Assembly: GCA_016188835.1 (NCBI GenBank)
Contig: JACPHB010000006.1
Coordinates: 1,877-65,876 of the forward strand
Source of the DNA: Parcubacteria group bacterium
GTDB taxonomy: Bacteria > Patescibacteriota > Minisyncoccia > UBA10092
Reading direction: 5' to 3'
DNA: 64,000 nt
Shown here: positions 4,405-52,680 of the stretch, one piece after another
Position numbering within the stretch: the first letter of the stretch is position 1
How the letters are laid out: the number at the start of each line of letters is the position of its first letter
Position numbers and translations under genes: made by a program
The notes under the pieces: generated by a model
Databases searched by the model: none
The model's input: only the letters and a program-made list of their open reading frames with translations
What the model was told of the DNA's origin: nothing

Positions 4405-5070
4405 TCAAATACGGGAATAGCTGTTTTTATGTTTTTTTATGTTTAATCTTTTGGTATTAAAATCGGCTGTCGCGTCAACAATTTTAGCTATGATCATTTC
4501 GCGCAATTGCGGCCTATTGCTATTATCGCGATGCAAGCGGAGCAAATTCGTTTTTATTATCTCTTCTATGTTTTGGTCGGCTCGCACCAAGTCGCAAAAA
4601 TGAACACGAGAAACAAAATTTCTTCCCGGTTTTAAAATTCGCGCTATTTGGTCGCGAAGGATTTTTTGCCGCGGCACGGAAAGCAGCCACCACATAAAAT
4701 CTCCGATCACTAAATCAAAATAATCTGAAAAGAAAGGCATTTCGCACCAATCAGCTATAATCCACGTTTCATTTTTTGGATTTGAGTAACGAAGGAATTT
4801 AGTGGCCGCCCCAACCATTTCCGGGCAGATATCGATTAAAACTATGTTCCCGCCGTTCTGCGCGATTAAATCTCTCAACTCGGGTGTTGCGCCAAACAGG
4901 AGTACTCGACCACTTAACTTTTCTCCGGCCAGCGTTTGGTATATATCAATGTCTCCCGATGATGGCCGCCAGGGAGACCACCGGTCGCCCCATCCTTTAG
5001 CGTATCCGCTCCATATATTCCTTATATCATTAAGAGAGCCGAGAAATCCAAGTTGAGTATTTATGAGCAT
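4405..5070 (-). CDS. putative class I SAM-dependent methyltransferase
   Basis: Rossmann-like VLLFGATPEL ... IVLIDICPEMV pattern; moderate confidence. Confidence 0.45.
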   Translation of the reverse strand: MLINTQLGFLGSLNDIRNIWSGYAKGWGDRWSPWRPSSGDIDIYQTLAGEKLSGRVLLFGATPELRDLIAQNGGNIVLIDICPEMVGAATKFLRYSNPKNETWIIADWCEMPFFSDYFDLVIGDFMWWLLSVPRQKILRDQIARILKPGRNFVSRVHFCDLVRADQNIEEIIKTNLLRLHRDNSNRPQLREMIIAKIVDATADFNTKRLNIKKHKNSYSRI

Positions 5071-11024: not shown

Positions 11025-11877
11025 AATTATAGTAATTTTCGTAGTCTTCTTTTAATCCTTTAATAAGCGGGGTAAACTTAATTCCCATTTTTTTTATTTT
11101 TTCATTACTGACAATGAAATTTTCATTGGCGAACGGAAATTCTAGAAAATTCCATTTCGCGCCGTCAGCCGAGGGGTTATATTCAATAATAGGTTTTTTG
11201 CCGATAATTTTTCCCATTTCTTCCGTAAGCTCGCGCAAAGTTATTACATCGTCTCCGGCGCAGTTAAACGCGCCTCCGATCTTTTTTTCGGCAAGAAAAG
11301 CCAAAGAATCAGCCACTTCATCCGCAAAAACAAAATGAATAAGCGCTTGCCCGTTTCCCGGCAAAACAAGCGGCGGTCCATTTTTAATTCTTGAATATAT
11401 AAACGCTTCTCGGTTACAATAATTTCGCGGGCCGAGAATGTAAACCGGACGCAGGACGGCGAATTCAACTCCGCTTTTTGCCAAAACATTCTCGCATTCT
11501 GCCTTTCCTCTGTTATAATCGCTCCAAAGCGGCCAGCCGCCAAGAGGCGAATCTTCGGTAAGCGGAAAATTTTTTGGTTTTTGGTACGCAGCGGCGGTGC
11601 TCATATGCAAGAAAAAATCGAAATTCAGTTCTTTAAGCGCGCATTTTGTTTGCGCTCCGCTGTAAGCGCACATATCTATAACCGCGTCAAAATGTTCCGG
11701 CATATTAAAACCGGCGTTTCTATCGCCTTTTATAAAACGAACGGCGCTAGGATAATCAGAACTTACTAAACCGCGGTTGAATACCGTAATTGAATGGTCC
11801 CCAGAAAGCAGTTTTTGGATAAGCAATGGCCCCACAAATCGCGAACCGCCGATGATCAATATGTTTTGTTTTCTCAT
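11017..11877 (-). CDS. NAD-dependent epimerase/dehydratase family protein
   Basis: N-terminal Rossmann ILIIGGSRFVGPLL; extended SDR fold. Confidence 0.8.
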   Translation of the reverse strand: MRKQNILIIGGSRFVGPLLIQKLLSGDHSITVFNRGLVSSDYPSAVRFIKGDRNAGFNMPEHFDAVIDMCAYSGAQTKCALKELNFDFFLHMSTAAAYQKPKNFPLTEDSPLGGWPLWSDYNRGKAECENVLAKSGVEFAVLRPVYILGPRNYCNREAFIYSRIKNGPPLVLPGNGQALIHFVFADEVADSLAFLAEKKIGGAFNCAGDDVITLRELTEEMGKIIGKKPIIEYNPSADGAKWNFLEFPFANENFIVSNEKIKKMGIKFTPLIKGLKEDYENYYNYV

Positions 11878-11925
11878 AACCCCAGTTTAAAACATACGGA
11901 GGTCATCTGTAAATTCCATCAACAA

Positions 11926-13407
11926 ATGTATAAAACCAATAAAAATGAATTTTTAAAAGGAGTTGGGCTGGCCGATTACTTTGATGAGTATTTTGACGCG
12001 CTGGAAAATCCTTTCTCCGAAGATACGGCTGTTTTGCCAATTCTTAAAAAAATCGGAGAAAAATTCGCTTATTCCTTGGAAAGTTTTATCGGAAATCAAA
12101 TATACATCAAAAAACAAATCTCGCCGCTTGACCATGTACCGCCGAAATTCCGCAGAGTTGTCGCGCGGCTTGCCAAAGAGGGAATTATTACCGACTGTTA
12201 TCGCCCAAAGCCGATTCCCGATTGGCCCAATATTCCGGCGTTAAGAATTACCTGCGGCGGATTAAGTCCTTCCGGTTGTTCGCTAAGCTACGAAGAAGCG
12301 GCAAAAAAAGCGGTTGCCGAATGTTTTGAAAGACACTCGTTTACCATATATGATAATAAAAAATTTATCTATGGATCCTACGCGGAATTTGAATTAAACG
12401 GCGCCCTTGATCCAAAACTTTTTAGCGGGTTTTCAAAGAATCAGCTGCAAAAAGAAAATTATGCCCGGCATCGCTTGGATGACAACTCAAAATTTATGTG
12501 GACGGAGGCAAAATCACTTTTTGATAATAAAAAATGTCTTGTTCCCGCTCAGTTAATTTATCTTGGGTATAAAAACGAAAAAGAAGAGCCCGTCATCAGG
12601 CAAACCACTACCAGCGGAGCTGCGGCGGGGAGCAGTTACGATATGGCTTTATACAATGCTCTTTGCGAAGCGGTGGAGCGCGATTCTTTTGTCATCCATT
12701 GGTTAAATAAAATTACTCCCCCCAGAATCAATCTGGACAATATTGCCAATGAGCCCATAAGGCGTCTGCTGTCGGAATATAAAAAATTCAACATTGATTT
12801 TGCCGTATTTGATATAACCACGGATCTTAATATTCCGGCCGTTCTTACCGTAATCCGGGATAACGCGCCGAAAAGATTAAAAGTATACGCGGCGCCTCGG
12901 GCAGATCTTGATATAGAAAACGCCATAAAATCTTCTCTTTCCGAAGCTCTCGTGGCGGGATTTATAAATGAAAGCGCGACGGAAGAGGTAAAAATATTAA
13001 ACGACAATGAGGGGGAAAATATAAAGAATATAAAAGATAGAATAATCTATTGGAGTGATCTGAAAAGAATCGGCGAAGCGGATTTTCTTTATGGAGACGG
13101 CTTTAGAACTCTTGCCGATAATAAATATCGGGGGGCGGGCGCGAAAGAAAAACTGCCGGTTCTTAAAGAAATTTTAAAAAACTCGGGGCTTGACGCTTAC
13201 GTTGTTGACGCAACCACGCCTCTTGCCAAAGAATTCGGTCTTACCGTTTTAGCGTCGCTTATACCCCGGCTCTGTCCGCTTTACCTTAACGAACACTATA
13301 AATGCCTTGGTGTAAGAAGATTGTATGAAGCTCCGGCGCGGATGGGAATTTTTAAAAATTCGAAAAAAGAAGAAGAAATGAACTTGGTACCACACCCGAT
13401 GCTTTAA
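11926..13407 (+). CDS. ycaO: YcaO-domain protein (ATP-dependent amide-backbone activating enzyme / cyclodehydratase family)
   Basis: YcaO hallmarks CGGLSPSGCSLSYEEAAKKAVAECFERHS, TTTSGAAAGSSYDMALYNALCEAVERDSF and C-terminal Pro-rich end NLVPHPML; start moved to the in-frame ATG at 11926 to avoid overlapping the convergent epimerase gene. Confidence 0.8.
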   Translation: MYKTNKNEFLKGVGLADYFDEYFDALENPFSEDTAVLPILKKIGEKFAYSLESFIGNQIYIKKQISPLDHVPPKFRRVVARLAKEGIITDCYRPKPIPDWPNIPALRITCGGLSPSGCSLSYEEAAKKAVAECFERHSFTIYDNKKFIYGSYAEFELNGALDPKLFSGFSKNQLQKENYARHRLDDNSKFMWTEAKSLFDNKKCLVPAQLIYLGYKNEKEEPVIRQTTTSGAAAGSSYDMALYNALCEAVERDSFVIHWLNKITPPRINLDNIANEPIRRLLSEYKKFNIDFAVFDITTDLNIPAVLTVIRDNAPKRLKVYAAPRADLDIENAIKSSLSEALVAGFINESATEEVKILNDNEGENIKNIKDRIIYWSDLKRIGEADFLYGDGFRTLADNKYRGAGAKEKLPVLKEILKNSGLDAYVVDATTPLAKEFGLTVLASLIPRLCPLYLNEHYKCLGVRRLYEAPARMGIFKNSKKEEEMNLVPHPML

Positions 13408-13416
13408 TCAAAAAAA

Positions 13417-14919
13417 ATGGCTAGACATATAAATTATAATAAAAAAACGGAAGAACGGCTGAAACAGGAAATAAAATGGCTTCTGGAAGAAAAATATGGA
13501 AACAAAATTACTGCGGAAGCAAACCAAGATATAGAAAAGATAAAGAACGGCGAACCGGTTGATTATGTCATCGGTCGGACTGATTTTTGCGGGGCAAAAA
13601 TCGACTTGTCTTTGCGTCCGCTAATCCCACGGCCGGAAACAGAATGTTGGGTAGCGGAAGCAATAGACGATATTAAAAGCCGGGGGAATATCGGTGAAAT
13701 TAAATGCCTTGATTTATTTTCCGGCTCGGGGTGCATAGGCATCGCGATTTTAAAAAACATTCCGGAAGCGCGCGTTGATTTTGTGGATATAGACGACATC
13801 GTTCTAAAACAAATAGCGATAAATCTTAAATTAAATGGTATTCACGAAAATCGTTTTTCCATAATAAAATCGGATATTTTTGAAAATGTAAGCGGGGCGT
13901 ATGATTATATTTTCGCCAACCCGCCGTATATTCCGACTAAATATCCGGTTGCCCAATCAGCCATTGAATATGAACCCCATCACTCCTTTTTGGCGGGAGA
14001 TAGCGGTCTTTTATTTATAAAGCCGTTTCTTGATGGATCAAAAAAATATTTGAAGAGCGGCGGCAAATTGTGGATGGAGTTTTATGCCGGAGAAAGAATG
14101 GAAATTGAAAATATCCTCCAAAAAAACAACTATGATTTTTATTTTAACGAACTCGGCGATTGCGGAGTTTTGTCGGCCAAACTGCGCGCGGAAAAAGCAT
14201 ATGCCGATCCGTTTTTTGAATACTTTGATAAAGAAATGCCTCTGATCAATCTTAATTCTTCGGAGTGGGGGACAATAACCTATAAAGAATATCCCTGCTC
14301 TTCCAAAATTATACTGCCCAATCCCGCTCCGCTTCCAACAAAAACAATAGAAGATGTTTTGTGTCGGAGAAAAACGGAAAGAAATTTCTCCAAAAAGCCG
14401 CTTTCCAAAGAAATACTGGGGCGATTGCTTTACTTTAGCGCAGGGCTGATAAGCAAAACGGTTGGCGCGGCAAACGAATTCCGCCGTTTTTACCCTTCCG
14501 GCGGCGCGAGATATCCGATAGAAATTTATATTGCGAATTTCACCCCCGGCGAGCTTGATGCGGGAGTTTATCATTATAACGTCAGGAACCATATATTGGA
14601 AAAATTGTCTTTTTCCTCCGCCGAAAAGATAAAACACGCCCTTTTTTATGATTTTGCCAAAGACGCCGCCGCGCTTATACTTCTTTCTTTTGTCGGTGAG
14701 CGAACAACGAAAAAATACGGTAATTTAGGATACAAATTAGGAATGATTGAAGCGGGACATATCGGACAAAATATTTATCTGGTAGGAACGGCGCTCGGGC
14801 TTGGAACGCTTGCCCTTGGAGGAATGAATTATGAAGTGGCGCAAAGGGAGTTAAATCTGGGAGAAGATGAAACGGTATTTTATCAGCTTGCCGTGGGACA
14901 ACCGGAAGAAAACAAATAA
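13417..14919 (+). CDS. fusion protein: N-terminal PrmC/HemK-type protein-(glutamine-N5) methyltransferase (about aa 1-280) plus C-terminal SagB-type (nitroreductase-fold, TOMM) dehydrogenase domain (about aa 300-500)
   Basis: PrmC motifs GRTDFCGAKIDLSLRPLIPRPETE, LDLFSGSGCIG, FANPPYIP; SagB-type motif RRFYPSGGARYPIEIY plus GMIEAGHIGQN nitroreductase core; 9 bp downstream of ycaO. Confidence 0.75.
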   Translation: MARHINYNKKTEERLKQEIKWLLEEKYGNKITAEANQDIEKIKNGEPVDYVIGRTDFCGAKIDLSLRPLIPRPETECWVAEAIDDIKSRGNIGEIKCLDLFSGSGCIGIAILKNIPEARVDFVDIDDIVLKQIAINLKLNGIHENRFSIIKSDIFENVSGAYDYIFANPPYIPTKYPVAQSAIEYEPHHSFLAGDSGLLFIKPFLDGSKKYLKSGGKLWMEFYAGERMEIENILQKNNYDFYFNELGDCGVLSAKLRAEKAYADPFFEYFDKEMPLINLNSSEWGTITYKEYPCSSKIILPNPAPLPTKTIEDVLCRRKTERNFSKKPLSKEILGRLLYFSAGLISKTVGAANEFRRFYPSGGARYPIEIYIANFTPGELDAGVYHYNVRNHILEKLSFSSAEKIKHALFYDFAKDAAALILLSFVGERTTKKYGNLGYKLGMIEAGHIGQNIYLVGTALGLGTLALGGMNYEVAQRELNLGEDETVFYQLAVGQPEENK

Positions 14920-17620: not shown

Positions 17621-17869
17621 ATGGTTAAAAGACCGCAACAATTTAAGGCCATTATTGAACAAGATGAAGACGGTTATTTTATAGGTTCAGTTCCGGCGCT
17701 TCCCGGCTGTTATACTCAAGCCAAAACACTTTTGGAACTTAAAAAGCGGCTTCAAGAGGCAATTTTGCTTTGTCTTGAAACGGCTCGCCTTGATCCACAA
17801 TATCGTCAGCGCTTAAAAATTTTTTCCTATATTCCGGCATTTGTAGGATTGGAATCGGTGGAAGTATAA
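17621..17869 (+). CDS. hicB: HicB-family antitoxin (UPF0150)
   Basis: FKAIIEQDEDGYFIGSVPALPGCYTQAKTLLE is the HicB/UPF0150 signature; 82 aa. Confidence 0.6.
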   Translation: MVKRPQQFKAIIEQDEDGYFIGSVPALPGCYTQAKTLLELKKRLQEAILLCLETARLDPQYRQRLKIFSYIPAFVGLESVEV

Positions 17870-21146: not shown

Positions 21147-21160
21147 AGTGTATTGATATA

Positions 21161-21300
21161 ACATAGCCAAACATAATTTTCCTCGCGCTCTCGGTCGCCC
21201 AGCGGCTTCCTCGCTGTCCGATGAAAGCGTTTTATTCGCCTTTGGCGAAACCATGCTAAAACGCTTTCATAAGCTTCGGAAAATTACGTTTGGCTATATT
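21161..21300. repeat. structured repeat element copy A (cgctctcggtcgcccagcg..ctcgctgtccgATGAAAGCGTTTTA..TAAAACGCTTTCATaagcttcgg), also present at 35335-35520
   Basis: About 100 nt shared with the 35.3 kb copy; internal 14-bp inverted repeat. Confidence 0.6.
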
Positions 21301-21308
21301 TTATAGAG

Positions 21309-21425
21309 TTGACAATAATATTGCAAAATAAAATTATAGGTGGGGGCGAGCCGTTCGCCGAAGGCGAATGGGCCTGCCTGCCGGCAGGCAGGGCTAAGGA
21401 ATTTTATTTTGCAATATTATTGTCA
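21309..21425. terminator. long palindromic terminator-like element, copy 1: 26-bp perfect IR arms flanking a GC core containing ccgTTCGCCgaagGGCGAAtgg and ggCCTGCCTGCCGGCAGGCAGGgc
   Basis: Perfect inverted repeat ttgacaataatattgcaaaataaaatt / aattttattttgcaatattattgtca; lies 3' of clpC on the minus strand. Confidence 0.6.
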
Positions 21426-23807
21426 TATTAAATTTATTTTATTATTTTTCACGTCCACGATAATATTTTTCTCTTTTCCATTTTTGAGGACAAAATCCGC
21501 CAGAGAATTAATAATCAGTTTATTAATCAAATGTTTTATTTCTCTTGCGCCATTGCGGCTCGAAACGGCTTTGTCGGCGATAAAATTTATTACCGCGGGC
21601 CTTATTTTCAGGCGGCAGTTAATTGAATCATTAGTGAGAATATTTTTAAGTTCAAGCTCGGCAATATACCTCATTTGCTGGCGTCCCAAAGGGTTAAAAA
21701 CCACTATTTCATCAAGGCGCGATAAAAGTTCCGGTATAAAATGGCGGCGCAAGGACTTTAAGCTGGCATTTTTAATTTCATCAAATTTTTCCGCAAACGT
21801 TTTTGAGGCGGCTATAAAACCGAATTTTTTTGCCTCGCGGCTGAATTCTCTTGAGCCGAGGTTGGAGGTTAGAATAACAATGGCGTTTTTAAAATTAGCC
21901 CGTCGGCCGCGATTGTCGGTTAGAACTCCTTCCTCCAAAATTTGGAGCAAAATATTGGCGACTTGGGGGTGCGCTTTTTCTATTTCATCAAAAAGCACTA
22001 CCGAGTGGGGCTCCCTCCGTATTTTTTCGGTTAAATTGCCCGGCTCTTCATAGCCGATGTATCCCGGCGGCGCTCCTATTAATTTAGATATGCTGTGGGG
22101 TTCTGAAAATTCCGACATGTCAATTTTTATTAAAGGCGACCTCAAAATTTCCTTGCTCAAAACTTTTGCCAAATTTGTTTTGCCGACTCCGGTCGGCCCG
22201 ATAAATAAAAATGAACCGAGGGGCTTTTCTCTATTAGATAAGCCGGCGTAAGATCGAGCCAGGGCGGCGGAGAGCGTTTCAATCGCCTCATCCTGTCCGA
22301 TTATATTTTGTTTTAATTTTCGACTGATTTGCTCCGAGCCGAGCTGAGCGGTTGTCTTGCCTGCCTGCGCAGGCAGGCCAAAAACAATATTTGGAATTCC
22401 TGTCATTAAATTCAGTGTCTTAACAACATCTTCTATTTGGAGTTCTAAATCGGTTTTTTCCGTTTCGGTTTCCAAATTTTTCAAAGCGCAGGCCTCGTCG
22501 AGCAGGTCTATCGCTTTATCGGGCAAAAACCTTTCGGTTAAATATTGATTTGACAATTTAACGGCGGCGCTTATGCATTCATTCGAAATTTTTATTTTAT
22601 GGTGATTTTTTAAGGATGGCAAAAGGCCCAGTAGAATTTCTTCGGTTTGGCTTTCTGTCGGTTCGCTAATCATAACCTGCTGGAATCGTCTTTCCAGGCC
22701 GCCGTCTCTTTCCACATATTTTCGCCATTCGGCCAAAGTGGTGGCTCCGATTATTTGTACTTTATTAAGCGACAAGAGCGGCTTAATAATGTTTGAGGCG
22801 TCTAAAGAACCCTGGGCGGCGCCGGCGCCGATAACGGTATGGAATTCATCTATAAAAATTATGGCGTTTTTTTCTTCGGCTTCATATAGCACATCTTTTA
22901 ACCGCTCCTCGAACTCGCCGCGGAAAGTGGCGCCCGAAACGATAGCGCCCAAATCAATCTGAAAAATATTTTTATTCTTTAAATTTTTTGGAACTTCATC
23001 TTTGGCTATTTTTTGCGCCAAACCATATACTATAGCTGTCTTGCCAACACCCGGCTCGCCGATTAGTATTGGATTATTTTTTGTCCTCCGGCTCATTATC
23101 GCGGTCATTCTTTGCATTTCTTTTTTTCTGCCGATTATGGGATCAAATTTTCCGTCTTTAGCCATTGCTACGAGTTCGGCTCCGAAAATTTCAAGTGGCG
23201 CTTTCTCCGGTTCTTCTTCGGATATATTTTTATAAACATCGGCGATCAGTTTATCCAAAATATTCGGGCTATTTTTAGCGGCGGTCACGGGACTGTTAAT
23301 TTTCCCCGAAAGATAAAAAATTTCTTTTAAGTGATTTTCTACATCAACAGCCAGCCGGTGTTTTTGAGCTGAAATCCTGCTTTTAAATTCAGAAATTAAG
23401 CCCCAAAGCAAATGCTCGGTGCCGATGTGCCGGTAACCGTATTTCATTGCTTCTTCGAGTGCCGATGCCAAAACATCGCGGAAAGAAATAACGCTCGGCA
23501 GAGATAAATTTAAGTCATTAATATCCAACCCGTGGTTTTTCAAAATATTGTAAGCCAAACTGCCGCGAGCTTCAAAAACCGCTTTGATTAAATGGCTTCC
23601 GCCAATTTCGCCCCGTAGCTGCGGGGCGGAATTTTCTGCCGCTAAAATGACGCTTTTGGCGCGAGCCGTCAAACGATTCTCAAGAGATGGGGATAACTTC
23701 ATATTTATAATGAATATTTTATGATATAATAAAATTAAATTTAAATTTTGTCTATTTTTATTTATGGCATTGCCTTTTAACATATTCAGCATTGGAAAAG
23801 AACCCAA
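21423..23807 (-). CDS. clpC: ATP-dependent Clp protease ATP-binding subunit (ClpC/ClpB-like, two AAA+ modules, Clp_N repeats)
   Basis: Two Walker A motifs GEPGVGKT and GPTGVGKT; Clp_N N-domain; 794 aa. Confidence 0.85.
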   Translation of the reverse strand: MGSFPMLNMLKGNAINKNRQNLNLILLYHKIFIINMKLSPSLENRLTARAKSVILAAENSAPQLRGEIGGSHLIKAVFEARGSLAYNILKNHGLDINDLNLSLPSVISFRDVLASALEEAMKYGYRHIGTEHLLWGLISEFKSRISAQKHRLAVDVENHLKEIFYLSGKINSPVTAAKNSPNILDKLIADVYKNISEEEPEKAPLEIFGAELVAMAKDGKFDPIIGRKKEMQRMTAIMSRRTKNNPILIGEPGVGKTAIVYGLAQKIAKDEVPKNLKNKNIFQIDLGAIVSGATFRGEFEERLKDVLYEAEEKNAIIFIDEFHTVIGAGAAQGSLDASNIIKPLLSLNKVQIIGATTLAEWRKYVERDGGLERRFQQVMISEPTESQTEEILLGLLPSLKNHHKIKISNECISAAVKLSNQYLTERFLPDKAIDLLDEACALKNLETETEKTDLELQIEDVVKTLNLMTGIPNIVFGLPAQAGKTTAQLGSEQISRKLKQNIIGQDEAIETLSAALARSYAGLSNREKPLGSFLFIGPTGVGKTNLAKVLSKEILRSPLIKIDMSEFSEPHSISKLIGAPPGYIGYEEPGNLTEKIRREPHSVVLFDEIEKAHPQVANILLQILEEGVLTDNRGRRANFKNAIVILTSNLGSREFSREAKKFGFIAASKTFAEKFDEIKNASLKSLRRHFIPELLSRLDEIVVFNPLGRQQMRYIAELELKNILTNDSINCRLKIRPAVINFIADKAVSSRNGAREIKHLINKLIINSLADFVLKNGKEKNIIVDVKNNKINLI

Positions 23808-24861
23808 AAGCTATTTAGGCGTTGATATCGGCACTTTATCAATAAAAATAGTGGAGCTTTCAAGTGAAAACGGCCGGCCAAAACTTCAAAATTATGCCAT
23901 TTTATCGAACTATAATCTGATTGAAAATAAAACTCCAAAAGTATTCGGCGGAGAAGCGTCAATGATGTTAAGACGGATGTTAAAAGAATCGGGCATAGTT
24001 GCGAAAGAAATTAATATGTCGGCGCCGATTTTTTCAAGTTTTCTTACTATTATGGAGTTACCGCCGATGTCAGAATCGGAAGTCGCGAGTGCTATTCAGT
24101 TTGAGGCGAAAAAATACATTCCGGTTCCTCTTGATAGCGTTTTGATTGATTGGTCTTTAATAGGAACCAGCGCCGAAGGCCCCTCGACTACGTTCGGGGC
24201 AGGCCTGCCTGCCGGTCAGGCAGGCAAAATTTTAATTCTTTTAATCGCCATACCCAAGGATTTGGTAAATGAGTACCAATTTATCGCTAGAGAATCCGAT
24301 TTAAAACTTAATAATTTGGAACTAGAAACCACGTCGGCGACTCGCGCCCTTATCGGCAATGATCCGGTCCCGGCGGTGTTAATGGACATGGGTTCGCGAG
24401 ATACTACAATCAGCGTGGTTGATGGCGGATATTTGCGGATCAGCCATTCAATTGAGGCCTCCGGTGAGGATTTAACCAGAGCTTTAGCGAATAGTTTAAA
24501 TATCAGTTGGCGCCGAGCCGAAGAATTAAAAAAAGAACAAGGCCTTAAAGTTATGGATAATAACAATCAAATTAACGATGTTCTTGCGCCTCTTTTAGAC
24601 ACTATTGTTAACGCCGCGAAAAATATTATTGATCTTTATTTTAGTAAAACCAATAAGAAAGTTGAAAAGCTGATTATTTACGGCGGGGCGGCTAAAATGC
24701 CCGGATTTTCGCAGTATCTTGGCAAGGGCCTCGGCATCGACGCCCTTATCGGAAATCCTTTTAGTAAAATCATTTACGATGAAAAATTAAATCCAATCAT
24801 GGAAGAAATAGGTCACGAGTTTACAATAGCGACCGGACTCGCCCTAAAAGCTATACAATAA
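23764..24861 (+). CDS. pilM: type IV pilus assembly protein PilM (actin-like ATPase fold)
   Basis: SYLGVDIGTLSIKIVEL N-terminus and overall PilM architecture; first gene of pilMNO. Confidence 0.85.
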   Translation: MALPFNIFSIGKEPKSYLGVDIGTLSIKIVELSSENGRPKLQNYAILSNYNLIENKTPKVFGGEASMMLRRMLKESGIVAKEINMSAPIFSSFLTIMELPPMSESEVASAIQFEAKKYIPVPLDSVLIDWSLIGTSAEGPSTTFGAGLPAGQAGKILILLIAIPKDLVNEYQFIARESDLKLNNLELETTSATRALIGNDPVPAVLMDMGSRDTTISVVDGGYLRISHSIEASGEDLTRALANSLNISWRRAEELKKEQGLKVMDNNNQINDVLAPLLDTIVNAAKNIIDLYFSKTNKKVEKLIIYGGAAKMPGFSQYLGKGLGIDALIGNPFSKIIYDEKLNPIMEEIGHEFTIATGLALKAIQ

Positions 24862-38570: not shown

Positions 38571-40328
38571 ATGATCAGCAACCGTGAAATTTCAAAAATA
38601 CTCTACGAAATAGGAGAATATCTTGAAATAAAAGGAGTAATGTTTAAACCTCGGGCTTATGAAAAAGCGGGTTATTCCGTTGAAAATTTAGAAGAGGAGG
38701 TCGCAGAGATTTATAAAAAAAACGGCTTAAAAGCGGTAGAAGACATTCCCGGCATCGGTGTTTCTATAGCTCTTAAAGTTGAAGAACTTTTAAAAACCGG
38801 CCGTTTAAAATATTATGAAAAATTAAAAAAATCTTTTCCGGTTAAAATTGGAGAACTTTCAGCTATTGAAGGCATGGGGCCGAAAATGATTTTTAAGCTT
38901 TACAAGAAACTTAAAATTCGTAGCATAAAAGATTTAGAAAAAGCGGCCGGGGCTGGGAAAATCGCTGTGATTGCCGGTTTTGGGAAAAAAACCGAAGAAA
39001 AGATTTTAAAAGGCATTGAATTTTTAAGAAAATCAGGCGGCCGATTTTTACTTGGTGTTGTTTTGCCGCAAGCCAGATCAATTGAAAATCGTCTTAAAGA
39101 ATTAAAGCATGTAAACAGGGTCGCGATTGCCGGTTCGCTCCGGAGAATGCAGGAAACAATCGGCGACCTTGATTTTTTAGTAACTTCAAAAAAACCGAAA
39201 GAAGTAATGAAATTTTTTGTTTCTATGCCAGAAATATCGCATATTTATTCGCAGGGGCAAACCAAAACAATGGTTCGACTAAAAAGTGGAATTGATGCCG
39301 ACTTGCGAGTTATACCAGATATTAGTTTTGGCGCTGCTTCACAGTATTTTACCGGAGACAAACGCCACAATATAACCATTCGCGCTTTAGCCGAGCGCAA
39401 AGGTTTTAAACTAAACGAATACGGTCTGTGGCGGGGTGAAAAACTTATTGCGGGGGAAACGGAAGAGGAAATTTACAAGTCGCTCGGCATGGTGACACCA
39501 TCGCCGGAAATAAGAAACGATTCTGGAGAAATTCAAGTAGCACTGCAAAATAAACTTCCAAAACTTATCGGATACGGCGATGTGAGAGGGGATTTGCAAG
39601 TTCAAACAAACTGGACCGATGGCGAAAATTCCATTGAGGAAATGGCAGAAAGCGCGAAAAGCGCAGGCTTGGAATATATCGCCATAACTGATCACACCAA
39701 AAGTTTGGCGATGACCGGCGGTGCCGATGAAAAGAAATTATTAAAGCAGATGGCCGAGATTGATCAGTTAAATTCTAAATTTCAAGCTCTAAATTCCAAG
39801 TTCCGAATATTAAAAGGTGCCGAAGTTAATATTTTAAAAGACGGCATGCTCGATATAAAAGATGAGGTTTTGGCAAAACTGGATGTTGTTGGCATAGCGG
39901 TTCATTCACATTTTAATCTTTCTCGGGCTGAACAAACCAAAAGAATTATTAAAGCGATGAAAAACAAAAACGCCGATATATTGTTTCACCCGACCGGCCG
40001 TTTGATCCAAAAACGGGAACCTTACGATGTTGATGTTGAAGAAATCATAAAAGTAGCGAAAGAAACAGGAACGATTTTGGAAATTGATGCCGATCCGTAC
40101 CGTTTGGATTTAAAAGATGAATATATAAGGAAAGCGGTTGCGGCCGGCGTTAAACTGTCTATTAATACCGATGCTCACTCTAAAAATAGTTTTCACTATC
40201 TGGAATTTGGCATTGCCCAGGCGCGCCGCGGCTGGGCGGGTAAAAACGACATTATAAATACTCGGCCATGGCCGGAGATGTTAAAATTATTAAAAACAAA
40301 ACAAAATATAAAAAATAAAATTGCTTAG
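38571..40328 (+). CDS. polX: DNA polymerase X family protein with C-terminal PHP phosphoesterase domain
   Basis: N-terminal HhH/pol-beta-like domain, GDLD-type nucleotidyltransferase region, PHP His-rich motifs (ITDHT, HSHF, NTDAHS). Confidence 0.85.
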   Translation: MISNREISKILYEIGEYLEIKGVMFKPRAYEKAGYSVENLEEEVAEIYKKNGLKAVEDIPGIGVSIALKVEELLKTGRLKYYEKLKKSFPVKIGELSAIEGMGPKMIFKLYKKLKIRSIKDLEKAAGAGKIAVIAGFGKKTEEKILKGIEFLRKSGGRFLLGVVLPQARSIENRLKELKHVNRVAIAGSLRRMQETIGDLDFLVTSKKPKEVMKFFVSMPEISHIYSQGQTKTMVRLKSGIDADLRVIPDISFGAASQYFTGDKRHNITIRALAERKGFKLNEYGLWRGEKLIAGETEEEIYKSLGMVTPSPEIRNDSGEIQVALQNKLPKLIGYGDVRGDLQVQTNWTDGENSIEEMAESAKSAGLEYIAITDHTKSLAMTGGADEKKLLKQMAEIDQLNSKFQALNSKFRILKGAEVNILKDGMLDIKDEVLAKLDVVGIAVHSHFNLSRAEQTKRIIKAMKNKNADILFHPTGRLIQKREPYDVDVEEIIKVAKETGTILEIDADPYRLDLKDEYIRKAVAAGVKLSINTDAHSKNSFHYLEFGIAQARRGWAGKNDIINTRPWPEMLKLLKTKQNIKNKIA

Positions 40329-40385
40329 CCCCACCCCGCCTGCGGCGGGGCGGCTCGCCCCCACCTACAATTTTATTTTTTATAT
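40326..40385 (+). terminator. rho-independent terminator (ccccgcc-tgc-ggcgggg hairpin, then T-rich tail)
   Basis: GC hairpin immediately after the polX stop, followed by ttttatttttt. Confidence 0.55.
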
Positions 40386-40410
40386 TTTGTTTCTTAACAT
40401 TATTATCACC

Positions 40411-40662
40411 ATGATTCATTTTAAGAAAAAAGTTTTTGAAGCGGTTAAAAAAATTCCCCAAGGGAAAACCGCGACTTATAAAGAAGTCGCGGTTTTGGCC
40501 GGCCGACCGCGCGCTTGGCGCGCGGTCGGTAATATTTTAAGCAAGAATTTTAACCCCAAAATTCCTTGCTATCGGGTAATCCGTTCTGATGGCAAAATCG
40601 GCGGCTACAACCGCGGCGTTTCAAATAAGAAGTTACTACTTAAAAAAGAGGGAGCAAAATAA
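40411..40662 (+). CDS. minimal MGMT-family protein (methylated-DNA-protein-cysteine methyltransferase DNA-binding/active-site domain only, 83 aa)
   Basis: TYKEVA..GRPRAWRAVGNIL..NPKIPCYRVIRSDGKIGGY = Ogt C-terminal domain with the PCxRV active-site Cys; the longer ORF from 40321 would run through the upstream terminator. Confidence 0.7.
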   Translation: MIHFKKKVFEAVKKIPQGKTATYKEVAVLAGRPRAWRAVGNILSKNFNPKIPCYRVIRSDGKIGGYNRGVSNKKLLLKKEGAK

Positions 40663-40755
40663 AACCAAGTAAAATTTTTAAAATTGTAGGCGGGGTCGTG
40701 CCGTTCGCCGAAGGCGAATGGGGCTACGACAATTTTAAAAATTTTACTTGGTTTT
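40661..40755. terminator. long palindromic terminator-like element, copy 2: perfect 27-bp IR arms (aaaaccaagtaaaatttttaaaattgt) around the core aggcggggtcgtgccgTTCGCCgaagGGCGAAtggggctacg; the right arm is the 3' end of rplT
   Basis: Perfect inverted repeat; shared core with 21336-21400 and 52598-52638; lies between the convergent MGMT and rplT genes. Confidence 0.65.
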
Positions 40756-41088
40756 ATTTATTATCTCTTTAAAAATTTCCGGATACTCGCGCGCCAATTC
40801 CGATAAAACTTTTCTATCAAGCTCTATATTTGATTTTTTTAAGCCATGCATAAATTTGCTGTAATTTAATCCATGTTCACGGGCGGCGGCGTTGAGCTGG
40901 ATTTGCCACAAGCCTCTTGCGGTTCTTTTTTTAACCCGCCGATCACGATATGCGTGAGTCCACGCGTGAAGCAAAGCTTCTTTAGCAGCCCGTTCTTTTG
41001 ACTTACGGCCCCACTTGAAACCTTTCGTGTATTTTAAAATTTTTTCCCGCCTTTTTAAGGCGATTTTTCCTCGTTTAACTCTAGGCAT
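40744..41088 (-). CDS. rplT: 50S ribosomal protein L20
   Basis: MPRVKRG..KRRE.ILK..KGF.G highly conserved L20 N-terminus. Confidence 0.9.
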   Translation of the reverse strand: MPRVKRGKIALKRREKILKYTKGFKWGRKSKERAAKEALLHAWTHAYRDRRVKKRTARGLWQIQLNAAAREHGLNYSKFMHGLKKSNIELDRKVLSELAREYPEIFKEIINKTK

Positions 41089-41814: not shown

Positions 41815-42016
41815 ATAGAATATTTTGATTAAATTTAATATGCTGAATATTAATTGGTTTCTATAAAAAAGTCAAACATTTGAGAGATTTTTGTTGTGCC
41901 CCTCGACTATCGCTCAGGGCACTCGTCTCAAAACAAAAACCAGAAACAAGTTTCTGGTTTTTGTTTTCGCTGTGGTTTACCACGAGCGAACATTGCCAAA
42001 AGCAATGTGAGTCGAG

Positions 42017-42456
42017 TGGAAGTGGCGAGAGTTGAACTCGCATCTAGAATTTAGCAATTAAACATATCTACAGGCGATAGGCTATTTATTGTTTTAGAAA
42101 TCTTTCTTAAAACAGCCAAAATAAAAGATTCCCGTTTCTTCTTTGGTTCTATCCGAATCGAAGAATTTTCGGATTAAAGCCTAATGGTTGACACCGGTAT
42201 TGTCCTATTAGACATCAGACAGCCGATGCCCTCCTACGTTAAAACTTCGGAGGGTGAAACCCGCTTAAGCAAAAGCGAAAGCAGGAGTTAGATTTGTTTT
42301 GGCAGTTATTTTCTGCTTTGCCCTCCATAGCTTTACGCGAAGGAGGGCAATCTCGGGGATTGTCGCATCCCGCTGAGCGGGACGGAATTTCGAGGTTACG
42401 AGATATCCTCGGCCTGCATATTTAATTTTAAAATTCTATCGAAGCCCATCACCCCC
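42017..42456 (-). ncRNA. ssrA: tmRNA (ssrA): tRNA-like 5' GGGGGUGAUGGGCUUCGA.., 3' GCGAGUUCAACUCUCGC-CACUUCC-A; predicted tag reading frame at 42265-42303 (AKTNLTPAFAFA*)
   Basis: Minus-strand 5' end and T-arm/acceptor 3' end match tmRNA consensus (E. coli GGGGCUGAUUCUGGAUUCGAC.. / GCGGGUUCAACUCCCGCCAGCUCCACCA); AUAACU-GCC resume context like E. coli AUAGUC-GCA; directly adjacent to smpB. Confidence 0.75.
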
Positions 42457-51246: not shown

Positions 51247-52599
51247 ATGGCGCAAACAAAAGATAAAAAAGAAAATTTAATGGAAAAAATTGTGTCGCTT
51301 TGTAAAAGGCGGGGGTTTATTTTTCCCGGCAGTGAAATTTACGGCGGTCTCTCCGGCACTTGGGATTATGGCCCGGTGGGCGCGCTTTTTAAAAAAAATA
51401 TTAAAGATTTGTGGTGGCGCGACACGGTTCAGTTGCGGGACGATGTTGTTGGCGTTGATGCGGCAATCATGATGAATCCGAAAGCTTGGGAGGCATCGGG
51501 TCATACCGAGGCTTTTAGCGATCCACTTGTGGAATGTAAAATTTGTCATGAAAGATTTCGCGCCGATAAGGAAATGGAAATTAAAAATCACGAAAAAACT
51601 CATAATAAAACAATAGAATGGACCAAATCAAAGAAATTTAATTTACTAGTTAAAGCTTACCTCGGTGTTTTAGAAGGCGAGGAGTCCCAAATTTATCTTC
51701 GCGGTGAAATAACTAATGGCGTTTCTGTAAATTTTAAAAACATCATTAATTCAACTCGGGTAAAAATTCCTTTCGGCGTCGCTCAAATCGGCAAGGCATT
51801 CAGAAATGAAATCACGCCGGGCAATTTTACTTTCCGATCGCGCGAATTTGAACAAATGGAAGTCCAATTTTACATTAAGCCCGAAGAAAAAGAAGGAAAA
51901 AAATGGTTTGACTACTGGAAAAAAAACCGGATGGATTGGTATCTTTCTTTGGGCATAAAAAAAGAAAACCTAAGATTCAGAGATCATGCCTTAAATGAGC
52001 GGGCTCATTATGCCCGAATGGCAACCGATATTGAATATAAAAGTCCTTGGGGCTGGCAGGAGTTTATGGGCATTCATCACCGGGGCGACTGGGATTTGAA
52101 AAGGCACCAGCAATTTTCTGGCGAAGACATGTCTTTTAGCGACCCCCAAACCGGTGAAAAATATTTGCTGTGGGATATAGAAACTTCTGCTGGAGTTGAC
52201 CGCTCGATCCTTTTTTTATTAATTGACGCTTATCGGGAGGAGGGCGGCAGAGTTTATCTTAAACTTCATCCGGCGCTTTCGCCCTATAAAGCGGCGGTTT
52301 TTCCGCTTTTAGCCAACAAGCCCGAACTTGTAAAATTGGCGAGAAAAATTTATGATGATTTGCGGCCGCAATTTATGACGGCTTGGGATGATCGTGGCAA
52401 CATCGGCAAGCGTTACTACAGCCAGGACGAATTGGGGACGCCGTTTTGCGTTACGGTTGATTTTGACTCCCTTGAAGACAAAAAAGTTACGGTTCGCGAC
52501 AGAGACACGATGAAACAGGAAAGAATCTCAATTTTAAAATTAGCGGAATATTTAAAAAATAAATTAAATGAAGATGAAAATAAAATTTTAAAATTGTAG
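51247..52599 (+). CDS. glyQS: glycyl-tRNA synthetase (alpha2 dimeric type)
   Basis: RRGFIFPGSEIYGGLSGTWDYGPVG N-terminus; class II motifs. Confidence 0.9.
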   Translation: MAQTKDKKENLMEKIVSLCKRRGFIFPGSEIYGGLSGTWDYGPVGALFKKNIKDLWWRDTVQLRDDVVGVDAAIMMNPKAWEASGHTEAFSDPLVECKICHERFRADKEMEIKNHEKTHNKTIEWTKSKKFNLLVKAYLGVLEGEESQIYLRGEITNGVSVNFKNIINSTRVKIPFGVAQIGKAFRNEITPGNFTFRSREFEQMEVQFYIKPEEKEGKKWFDYWKKNRMDWYLSLGIKKENLRFRDHALNERAHYARMATDIEYKSPWGWQEFMGIHHRGDWDLKRHQQFSGEDMSFSDPQTGEKYLLWDIETSAGVDRSILFLLIDAYREEGGRVYLKLHPALSPYKAAVFPLLANKPELVKLARKIYDDLRPQFMTAWDDRGNIGKRYYSQDELGTPFCVTVDFDSLEDKKVTVRDRDTMKQERISILKLAEYLKNKLNEDENKILKL

Positions 52600-52663
52600 G
52601 CGGGGTCGTGCCGTTCGCCGAAGGCGAATGGGGCTACGACAATTTTTAAATTTTATTTTCATC
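52573..52663. terminator. long palindromic terminator-like element, copy 3: the left arm is the last 8 codons of glyQS (gatgaaaataaaattttaaaattgt), the right arm is its inverted copy, around the same GC core
   Basis: Inverted repeat with one indel; core identical to copy 2. Confidence 0.65.
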
Positions 52664-52680
52664 TGAATTCGAACAAATCA

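Follow-up and report, generated by a model that had tools for sequence, protein, structure and literature searches.

The Patescibacteria are considered to have small, streamlined genomes in which mobile elements are few. Among the small repetitive DNAs described in other hosts, the MITEs (miniature transposable elements with inverted repeats; for example Correia, ERIC and RUP) measure about 50-500 bp, are AT-rich in most cases, and have target-site duplications along with terminal inverted repeats. The GC clusters of yeast mitochondria are GC-rich hairpins in an AT-rich genome, which lie between genes and occasionally in genes and come with a short target duplication. Rickettsia palindromic elements (RPEs) are about 150 bp long (about 100-150), are specific to Rickettsia and encode a conserved peptide of some 30-50 residues. 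The repetitive extragenic palindromes (REPs) are GC-rich palindromes of 20-40 bp that are mostly extragenic and include GTAG- and CGTC-tagged families (Di Nocera et al. 2013, PMC3733652). REPs are often nested in longer palindromes and sometimes supply stop codons, and many of the intragenic ones lie in genes for replication and repair, uvrA and the DNA ligase gene among them (PMC3733652). Repetitive hairpin-forming elements have also been described in sponge mitochondria (PMC2800124). Here we analyze a GC-rich palindrome, given the working name P, in a 64-kb stretch of contig JACPHB010000006.1 (the window, from whose first letter all positions are counted unless another contig is named), and compare it with these systems.

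Copies of P and their insertion sites

It is clear from the sequence that the window, with a GC content of 39%, contains three perfect GC-rich palindromes, of which one is intergenic, one lies in clpC and one in pilM. A first-pass annotation had reported three GC-rich palindromes in AT-rich DNA, and exact copies do fall inside all three of the ranges it had marked. P has the arms (CCTG)2 and (CAGG)2, and its full form is 20 bp long. The copies and their host genes are the following.

21373-21392, intergenic: P20, the perfect 20-bp palindrome CCTGCCTGCCGGCAGGCAGG
21423-23702, minus strand: clpC, host of P18; protein entry P0001, 100% identical, is named ATP-dependent Clp protease ATP-binding subunit, Parcubacteria group bacterium
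22359-22378: the clpC palindrome, GCCTGCCTGCGCAGGCAGGC
22360-22377, minus strand: P18, the 18-bp core CCTGCCTGCGCAGGCAGG, in frame in clpC in the D1-D2 linker; adds LPAQAG
23764-24861, plus strand: pilM, host of P21; protein entry P0121, 100% identical, is named type IV pilus assembly protein PilM
24203-24225: the pilM palindrome, GCCTGCCTGCCGG-T-CAGGCAGGC, written whole GCCTGCCTGCCGGTCAGGCAGGC
24204-24224, plus strand: P21, core CCTGCCTGCCGG-T-CAGGCAGG, in frame in pilM; adds LPAGQAG

The entries identical to the window ClpC and PilM are both named Parcubacteria group bacterium; of the relatives that carry a name, Candidatus Azambacteria are the nearest. The untranslated copy of P has 20 bp, which is not a multiple of three, and the two translated copies have 18 and 21 bp. 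These coding lengths are reached by two different changes: P18 is P20 without the central CG and reads C CTG CCT GCG CAG GCA GG, and P21 has one added base, an extra T after CCGG. The palindrome as first described therefore fits the intergenic and pilM copies; the clpC copy, as the 18-bp form without the central CG, is not CCGG-centred. The translations first given, GLPAQAGK for ClpC (minus strand) and GAGLPAGQAGK for PilM, are correct.

The chance expectation was taken from dinucleotide-preserving shuffles of the window. With up to one mismatch the 12-mer had four matches (three of them exact, within two palindromes) against a shuffle mean of 0.07, and the 9-mer arm GCAGGCAGG was found five times, every one inside the three copies, against 0.19 in shuffles. 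The motif thus lies far above chance, by which about 0.1 copies are expected. No further P copy was present in the 64 kb at up to three mismatches, so that the window contains three in all. All three copies are confined to 2.85 kb, which for three random points has a probability of about 0.006, computed as 3(w/L)^2-2(w/L)^3.

The insertion status of the copies was assessed against L300/L302, the nearest relative fetched (L numbers are our handles for loci and contigs), which has 87% nucleotide identity to the window over 10.8 kb and the same comF-clpC-pilM order. It carries none of the three P copies, and no half-site either. The GC-rich indels that the comF-clpC-pilM block has in the window and lacks in L300 measured 109 bp at 21159, 120 bp at 21303, 18 bp (P) at 22359 and 45 bp at 24177 (in pilM). 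The 109-bp and 120-bp indels are long hairpin elements of the clpC-comF spacer, which is only about 46 nt long in L300. Collectively, these alignments show that all three P copies are insertions, recent ones and clean at their junctions. Both coding targets were pre-existing GGC AAR, and the insertion junctions are therefore ambiguous by 3-5 nt (GCC, AGGC).

The linker site in clpC was compared over eight loci, namely the window and seven relatives more distant than L300. The site is empty in four of the eight (L082-L085, reading TTC GGC AAA), contains other P variants in two (a 21-bp CCGG-type copy giving LPAGRHG in L087 and a complex copy with (CCTG)4 in L081) and is left with a half-palindrome remnant in one, L086. 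The clpC gene of L087 carries an additional 18-bp P (LPAQAGH) at a second site, where other homologues have variants such as PHAQAG and MSAQAS. The P18 site lies between the two ATPase domains, in the most variable part of the ClpC alignment.

The P21 site in pilM is empty in L082, L083, L085 and L300. Compared with L300, the full insertion in the window consists of two parts.

24177-24221, plus strand: 45-bp insertion in pilM, made up of a second small hairpin (GPSTTFGAG, GCCCCTCGACTACGTTCGGGGC) and then P21

The GPSTT(L)GAG part is found alone at the same PilM loop in protein entry P0137. Among 107 PilM orthologues the loop is empty in 74, where it has five to eight residues (five or six in 73 of them), typically TGADGK, and it contains an insert in the remaining 33. 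These inserts include intact P-derived peptides (DLPAQAGK), decayed P peptides (LSAQAG, APGQAG, and PPAERAG in two distant clades) and a peptide from a different hairpin family (SGHLPQGD). A neighbour-joining tree, a distance tree of this one protein built without the loop, requires 23 or more gains or losses. An AlphaFold2 model of the window PilM (mean predicted local distance difference test score, pLDDT, of 88.5; predicted template-modelling score of 0.87) puts residues 137-154 at a beta-hairpin tip, where residues 139-151 have a pLDDT below 50. In this model the insert sits at a tolerated position, a disordered beta-hairpin tip. The proposal of the first-pass annotation that an in-frame palindromic element family had inserted residues into two unrelated proteins is supported by the orthologue alignments, in which the ClpC and PilM peptides are not conserved, and by in-frame P in unrelated genes of other Patescibacteria (see below).

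The intergenic copy is part of a longer hairpin, and related hairpins recur in the window.

21310-21425: composite hairpin element 1, 116 nt, with 26-nt perfect AT-rich arms around a GC core; absent from L300
21156-21304: composite hairpin element 2, located between clpC and comF; arms of 27 nt, tip hairpin TTCGCCtttGGCGAA; absent from L300 (109-bp indel)
40657-40759: sister of element 1 that lacks the palindrome and serves as the "empty" reference, with a closely related 41-nt core
52567-52669: second sister of element 1, with a core identical to that at 40657-40759 and without P20
40299-40392: related element in reverse orientation

The GC core of element 1 contains, in this order, the scaffold AGGTGGGGGCGAGCC, the TTCGCCgaaGGCGAA hairpin, P20 and GCTAAGG. 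TTAGCC precedes the palindrome, and an arm of the element contains the clpC stop codon. The folding energies of element 1, -53.8 and -62.5 kcal/mol (z about -9 and -8.4), are far better than those of shuffles, and its absence from L300 accounts for the 120-bp indel at 21303. The two sisters share the TTCGCCgaaGGCGAA hairpin with element 1 and read GAATGGGGCTA where element 1 reads GAATGGG-P20-GCTA. Since the sisters lack exactly 20 bp, P20 is a clean insertion into a pre-existing element. The first-pass annotation had called this copy a terminator core, which is only loosely true, in that it lies inside the 116-nt hairpin element. For P in general a terminator role was rejected, since a T-run follows 24% of the copies in AT-rich contigs compared with 28% of random positions, and the A/T tracts beside the intergenic copy belong to the arms of the larger hairpin.

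Element 2 is common to the window and L081, and its tip hairpin in L081 is TCCCCGCCaaGGCGGGGA while the remainder is conserved. Small GC hairpins therefore act as interchangeable modules on the tips of longer ones. The long intergenic hairpins at 40657-40759, 52567-52669, 40299-40392 and 21156-21304 form a family with a shared GC core TAGGYGGGGYCGWGCC, a small hairpin and GGGGCTAMG. The arms are private to each copy, almost perfectly self-complementary (25-31 nt, 89-100%), and begin at or overlap stop codons. At the gathering threshold of Rfam, the window matches comprised the tmRNA and one tRNA only, and none to the hairpin elements.

Lineage-specific insertions of at least four residues, collected from the window and seven relatives, are mostly GC-rich perfect hairpins of several families. 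Other in-frame GC-rich perfect hairpins that are absent from orthologues give the peptides APQLRGE, PLRGISRRE, GVGHR, PLIKGGLGG and PPKADQPRAE. Their sites are 23609-23628 of the window (the N-terminal domain of clpC), 19665-19681 of L082, 12824-12842 and 2801-2821 of L084, and about residue 62 of clpC in L086.

Distribution, reading frame and host genes

Beyond the window P was searched for with the pattern CCTGCCTGC-N(0-2)-GCAGGCAGG. In IMG/VR, whose contigs may include non-viral DNA, the pattern was found in 76 stretches compared with 5 and 3 for two composition-matched control palindromes; the controls occurred only in contigs of 56-71% GC, and P additionally in 22 contigs below 55% GC. 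Two other hairpin sequences, taken from this genome and a close relative, gave 0 and 8 IMG/VR stretches. The other hairpin families are therefore not equally widespread, and P is special among the hairpins compared.

Metagenomes contained at least 120 stretches with P. Among the metagenome matches listed, which are the first part of the collection and not a random draw, about 70% of the P copies come from contigs with 30-50% GC, although for so GC-rich a motif the reverse would be expected by chance. Many of them stem from groundwater size fractions and sediments. As a negative control we used distant ClpC loci from other lineages, found with a ClpC protein pattern, and P was absent from these 1.37 Mb, which surround the ClpC genes in 80 genomes, almost all of them from beyond the candidate phyla. 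Cultured phages and plasmids gave imperfect matches only, which is uninformative given the sizes of these collections. It is clear that P is present in many other Patescibacteria and in environmental viral contigs, and that its distribution is wide and sequence-specific. The literature searched contained neither the palindrome sequence nor its peptides, and it yielded no report on candidate-phyla bacteria.

In AT-rich contigs 73 of 89 P copies are located outside long open reading frames (ORFs). Inside ORFs we found 12 of the 68 copies of 20 bp, four of the eight copies of 18 bp and none of the 13 copies of 19 bp, and their reading frame is nearly always LPAGRQ or LPAQAG. The ORF test was a simple stop-free-span rule and is not trusted for GC-rich contigs. 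The proteins with in-frame P in AT-rich contigs include UvrA, PurH, PheS, UvrC and RecR, and multiple in-frame copies are found in the NAD-dependent DNA ligase LigA (three inserts) and in DinB (two). Where these exact proteins are recorded, the named sources include Patescibacteria and Candidatus Wolfebacteria, and identical P inserts were found in independent assemblies.

The P-bearing genes of other Patescibacteria mostly belong to DNA repair (LigA in L254, DinB in L228, UvrA in L188, UvrC in L213 and RecR in L201), and some of them carry two or three inserts. Two of the LigA inserts are flanked alike (KPKTPA...KPK), which gives the impression that a larger unit, of about 45 bp, went in twice.

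The viral contig L135 contains at 2239-2330 a tRNA-Met with the 20-bp P exactly in the variable loop, which ARAGORN reads as 92 nt with P and as a normal 72-nt tRNA after removal of P. As an insert in functional tRNA genes P was otherwise rejected, since this is the one case that ARAGORN accepts and the remaining tRNA-like flanks are 5' fragments. A small GIY-YIG nuclease ORF of about 85-95 aa is located at most 70 nt from P in four metagenomic or viral contigs (L284, 640-1136; L154, about 454-816; L236, about 788-1117; L244, about 4410-4727); the window has none. In at least three of these contigs (L154, L236 and L284) P lies inside a tRNA-like 5' fragment beside real tRNA genes, and in L284 two such fragments carry P at the identical position (GGTAGA^GCAG). 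In L086 a GIY-YIG ORF lies in the clpC-comF spacer, which in the window contains the hairpin elements. In several GC-rich viral contigs a single ORF of unknown function is located between two P copies at a distance of about 655-675 bp from each other (L116, 5704-6377; L088, 10596-11273; L147, 4537-5229). The ends in L116 are inverted repeats of each other beyond P, and the unit resembles a small cassette.

Possible origins of P

We tentatively favor the reading that P is a very small, untagged, non-autonomous and selfish palindromic mini-element of the REP kind. The comparison of occupied and empty sites shows that P is a discrete unit, added to DNA without a regular target duplication, and the alignments of ClpC and PilM show repeated gain or loss of P during the diversification of Candidatus Azambacteria, with rapid turnover at tolerated sites. 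A trans-acting factor would copy such an element via a single-stranded hairpin intermediate, and insertions would land anywhere and then be filtered by selection. Inside genes a copy would survive only if its length is a multiple of three (18 or 21 bp), if it is read as LPA(G)QAG, which does no harm, and if it lies in a linker or a surface loop. Intergenic copies would retain the 20-bp form, often at the tip of longer AT-rich hairpins, and copies would drift and decay after insertion. No recurrent protein family was found near P, which we count in favor of non-autonomy.

Several results weigh against this reading. No Y1/RAYT (REP-associated tyrosine transposase), other transposase or GIY-YIG domain that could represent a mobilizing enzyme was found in the 40 window ORFs scanned. 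The ORFs bracketed by two P copies (in L116, L088, L099, L130 and L262) contain no Y1 transposase or other nuclease domain, and a REPtron-like arrangement was ruled out on this ground. P has no target motif. Adjacent direct repeats of at least 6 nt accompany about 5% of the P copies compared with 0.4% of random positions, and their length varies; being confined to a minority of copies, they do not amount to a regular target-site duplication. P carries no GTAG or CGTC tag either: GTAG was present within 7 nt in 8 of 402 flanks of about 200 non-redundant copies (2.0%) compared with 1.0% of random positions, and CGTC near P in 1.2% compared with 1.6%. With neither target motif, tag nor regular duplication, transposition is inferred from the distribution only. 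The clustering at the kilobase scale, with three copies in 2.85 kb and two or three within single genes elsewhere, is predicted likewise by enzyme-free local copying, and the junction microhomology of 3-5 nt (GCC, AGGC) fits template switching equally well. Furthermore, one 20-mer is found across distant lineages, whereas known REP families differ between species, and the count of three copies is for 64 kb of this genome.

Such enzyme-free copying, by template switching, microhomology-mediated templated insertion or gene conversion and usually from a nearby donor, is the main rival explanation, which we regard as doubtful. A hairpin would stall the fork, and the nascent end would re-anneal at a short GGC/GCC match and copy the palindrome. 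The tight grouping of the window copies fits this route, as do the two copies in the clpC of L087, the three in LigA and the two in DinB. So do the GGC AAR targets with their ambiguous junctions, and the lack of a target-site duplication, tag or linked gene. Snap-back synthesis could in addition yield the long hairpins with their private, perfectly complementary arms around a shared core. However, the identical 20-mer in unrelated genomes and viral contigs needs a prior transfer to seed these lineages, the pilM junction of L084 (GAC^CTG...GGT^AAA, with ^ at the junctions) has little microhomology, and neighbouring copies differ in their centre variant.

We consider it unlikely that an unrecognised sequence-specific insertion activity, a "hairpin writer" that puts an invariant 20-nt palindrome, (CCTG)2CCGG(CAGG)2, into chromosomes, operates across the Patescibacteria, some other bacteria and viruses. 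Such an activity may be horizontally shared, and its targets would then include essential repair genes and tRNA genes. The writing enzyme may be a structure-specific nuclease, for example the small GIY-YIG protein encoded beside P in four contigs, or a template-switching polymerase.

It is improbable that P is a selected functional site, be it for a nucleoid, restriction-modification or structure-specific protein or as an RNA hairpin for transcription, translation or mRNA decay. The arms are strongly conserved across lineages and the hairpin is stable (-8 to -10.8 kcal/mol as DNA), and among the window copies that of pilM alone, with AAAATTTTAAT after it, matches a simple terminator pattern. 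Yet P is patchy at orthologous sites, as seen from the 23 or more changes among the 107 PilM sequences, the nearest relative is without any P, and neither T-run enrichment nor a positional relation to promoters was found. A composition-matched palindrome folds equally well and is nevertheless 15-25 times rarer, from which it follows that hairpin stability alone is not selected. The copies decay, and they come and go at a locus, which argues against a conserved local function. The protein-binding or restriction-modification site suggested in the first-pass annotation finds no support here.

An independent de novo origin, in which a (CCTG)n microsatellite would arise by slippage and be made palindromic by snap-back synthesis, is very improbable. 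The arms of P are indeed tetranucleotide repeats, L081 has (CCTG)4, and the base before P is rarely T and in 39% of the copies G, which continues the CCTG repeat. There are, however, no free (CCTG)2C tracts outside P in the window or the relatives, a control palindrome based on the tetranucleotide repeat (CCGT)2 is rare (3 stretches), and the same 18-, 20- and 21-bp forms are found at many unrelated sites. An assembly or sequencing artefact, which might be suspected from several copies located about 30 nt or less from contig ends (L172, L187, L245, L277, L259 and L224), is effectively refuted by the agreement between assemblies. The reading frame is kept in coding copies, the same protein positions are hit in different species and independent assemblies (NCBI, ENA, JGI, Logan), the decay of copies is graded, and contigs are expected to break at the repeats of any genuine multi-copy element.

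As a palindrome of 20 bases that repeatedly enters housekeeping genes, P would give Patescibacteria genomes a hitherto undescribed source of indels and of variation in protein length, and would be a practical marker for gene-calling and alignment errors. The presence of the same 20-mer in distant lineages and in viral contigs raises the question of which enzyme copies P.

Some further features of the window were observed along the way. The ORF at 1067-1609, which has no Pfam match, contains at 1343-1504 a direct repeat of about 60 bp. Its copies are spaced by about 99 bp, and the 18-bp palindrome CTCCGGCAATTGCCGGAG is present in each. At 11794-14916 a YcaO cyclodehydratase gene is followed by a methyltransferase-nitroreductase fusion gene, with tetratricopeptide repeat (TPR) proteins nearby. 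This region may be a small peptide-modification cluster, and the YcaO neighbourhood is also present in relatives. The window also contains a HicB-like antitoxin ORF at 17621-17866, a family X DNA polymerase with a PHP domain (PolX) at 38571-40325, which ends in a hairpin element, and a tmRNA gene at 42014-42456 adjoining smpB.

Comparison with known elements

Compared with an intrinsic terminator, which is a GC-rich hairpin and then a T-run, P has no enrichment of T-runs beside it. The MITEs resemble P in being non-autonomous, in forming a stem-loop and in their ability to sit in frame in genes. P differs from them by its 20 bp, its GC-richness and the lack of a target-site duplication of fixed length. 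The hairpin elements of mitochondria are, like P, GC-rich hairpins that spread in an AT-rich genome, between genes and occasionally inside them. Their hosts are organelles, however, the elements are longer, and the short target duplication of the GC clusters has no regular counterpart in P.

The likeness to the RPEs is that of a selfish palindromic DNA which is found in frame in many unrelated housekeeping genes and adds a conserved peptide. In-frame insertion of this type was found for P in ClpC, PilM, UvrA, LigA, PheS, PurH, DinB, UvrC and RecR. The sizes differ, P being 18-21 bp long and adding 6-7 residues. P furthermore extends across the Patescibacteria and viral contigs, and no sequence relation between the two was seen.

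In relation to the REPs, P lacks the GTAG or CGTC tag, which defines the tagged families and for which membership was rejected. No RAYT was found in the 40 ORFs scanned in the window, within 64 kb of the source genome, or in the P-bracketed ORFs scanned elsewhere. On these two grounds we do not file P as a member of the tagged REP families. P is also a perfect palindrome at the bottom of the REP size range, and one P sequence is common to distant lineages, whereas REP families have been described genome by genome (PMC3733652). Of the elements described, the intragenic REPs come closest to P: P is short, GC-rich and stem-loop-forming, it is nested in AT-rich hairpins, and the host element of P20 supplies the clpC stop codon from its arm. 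P is likewise hosted by UvrA, UvrC, LigA, DinB and RecR, and through P the repair-gene bias of intragenic REPs (PMC3733652) would become testable in a second, unrelated group.

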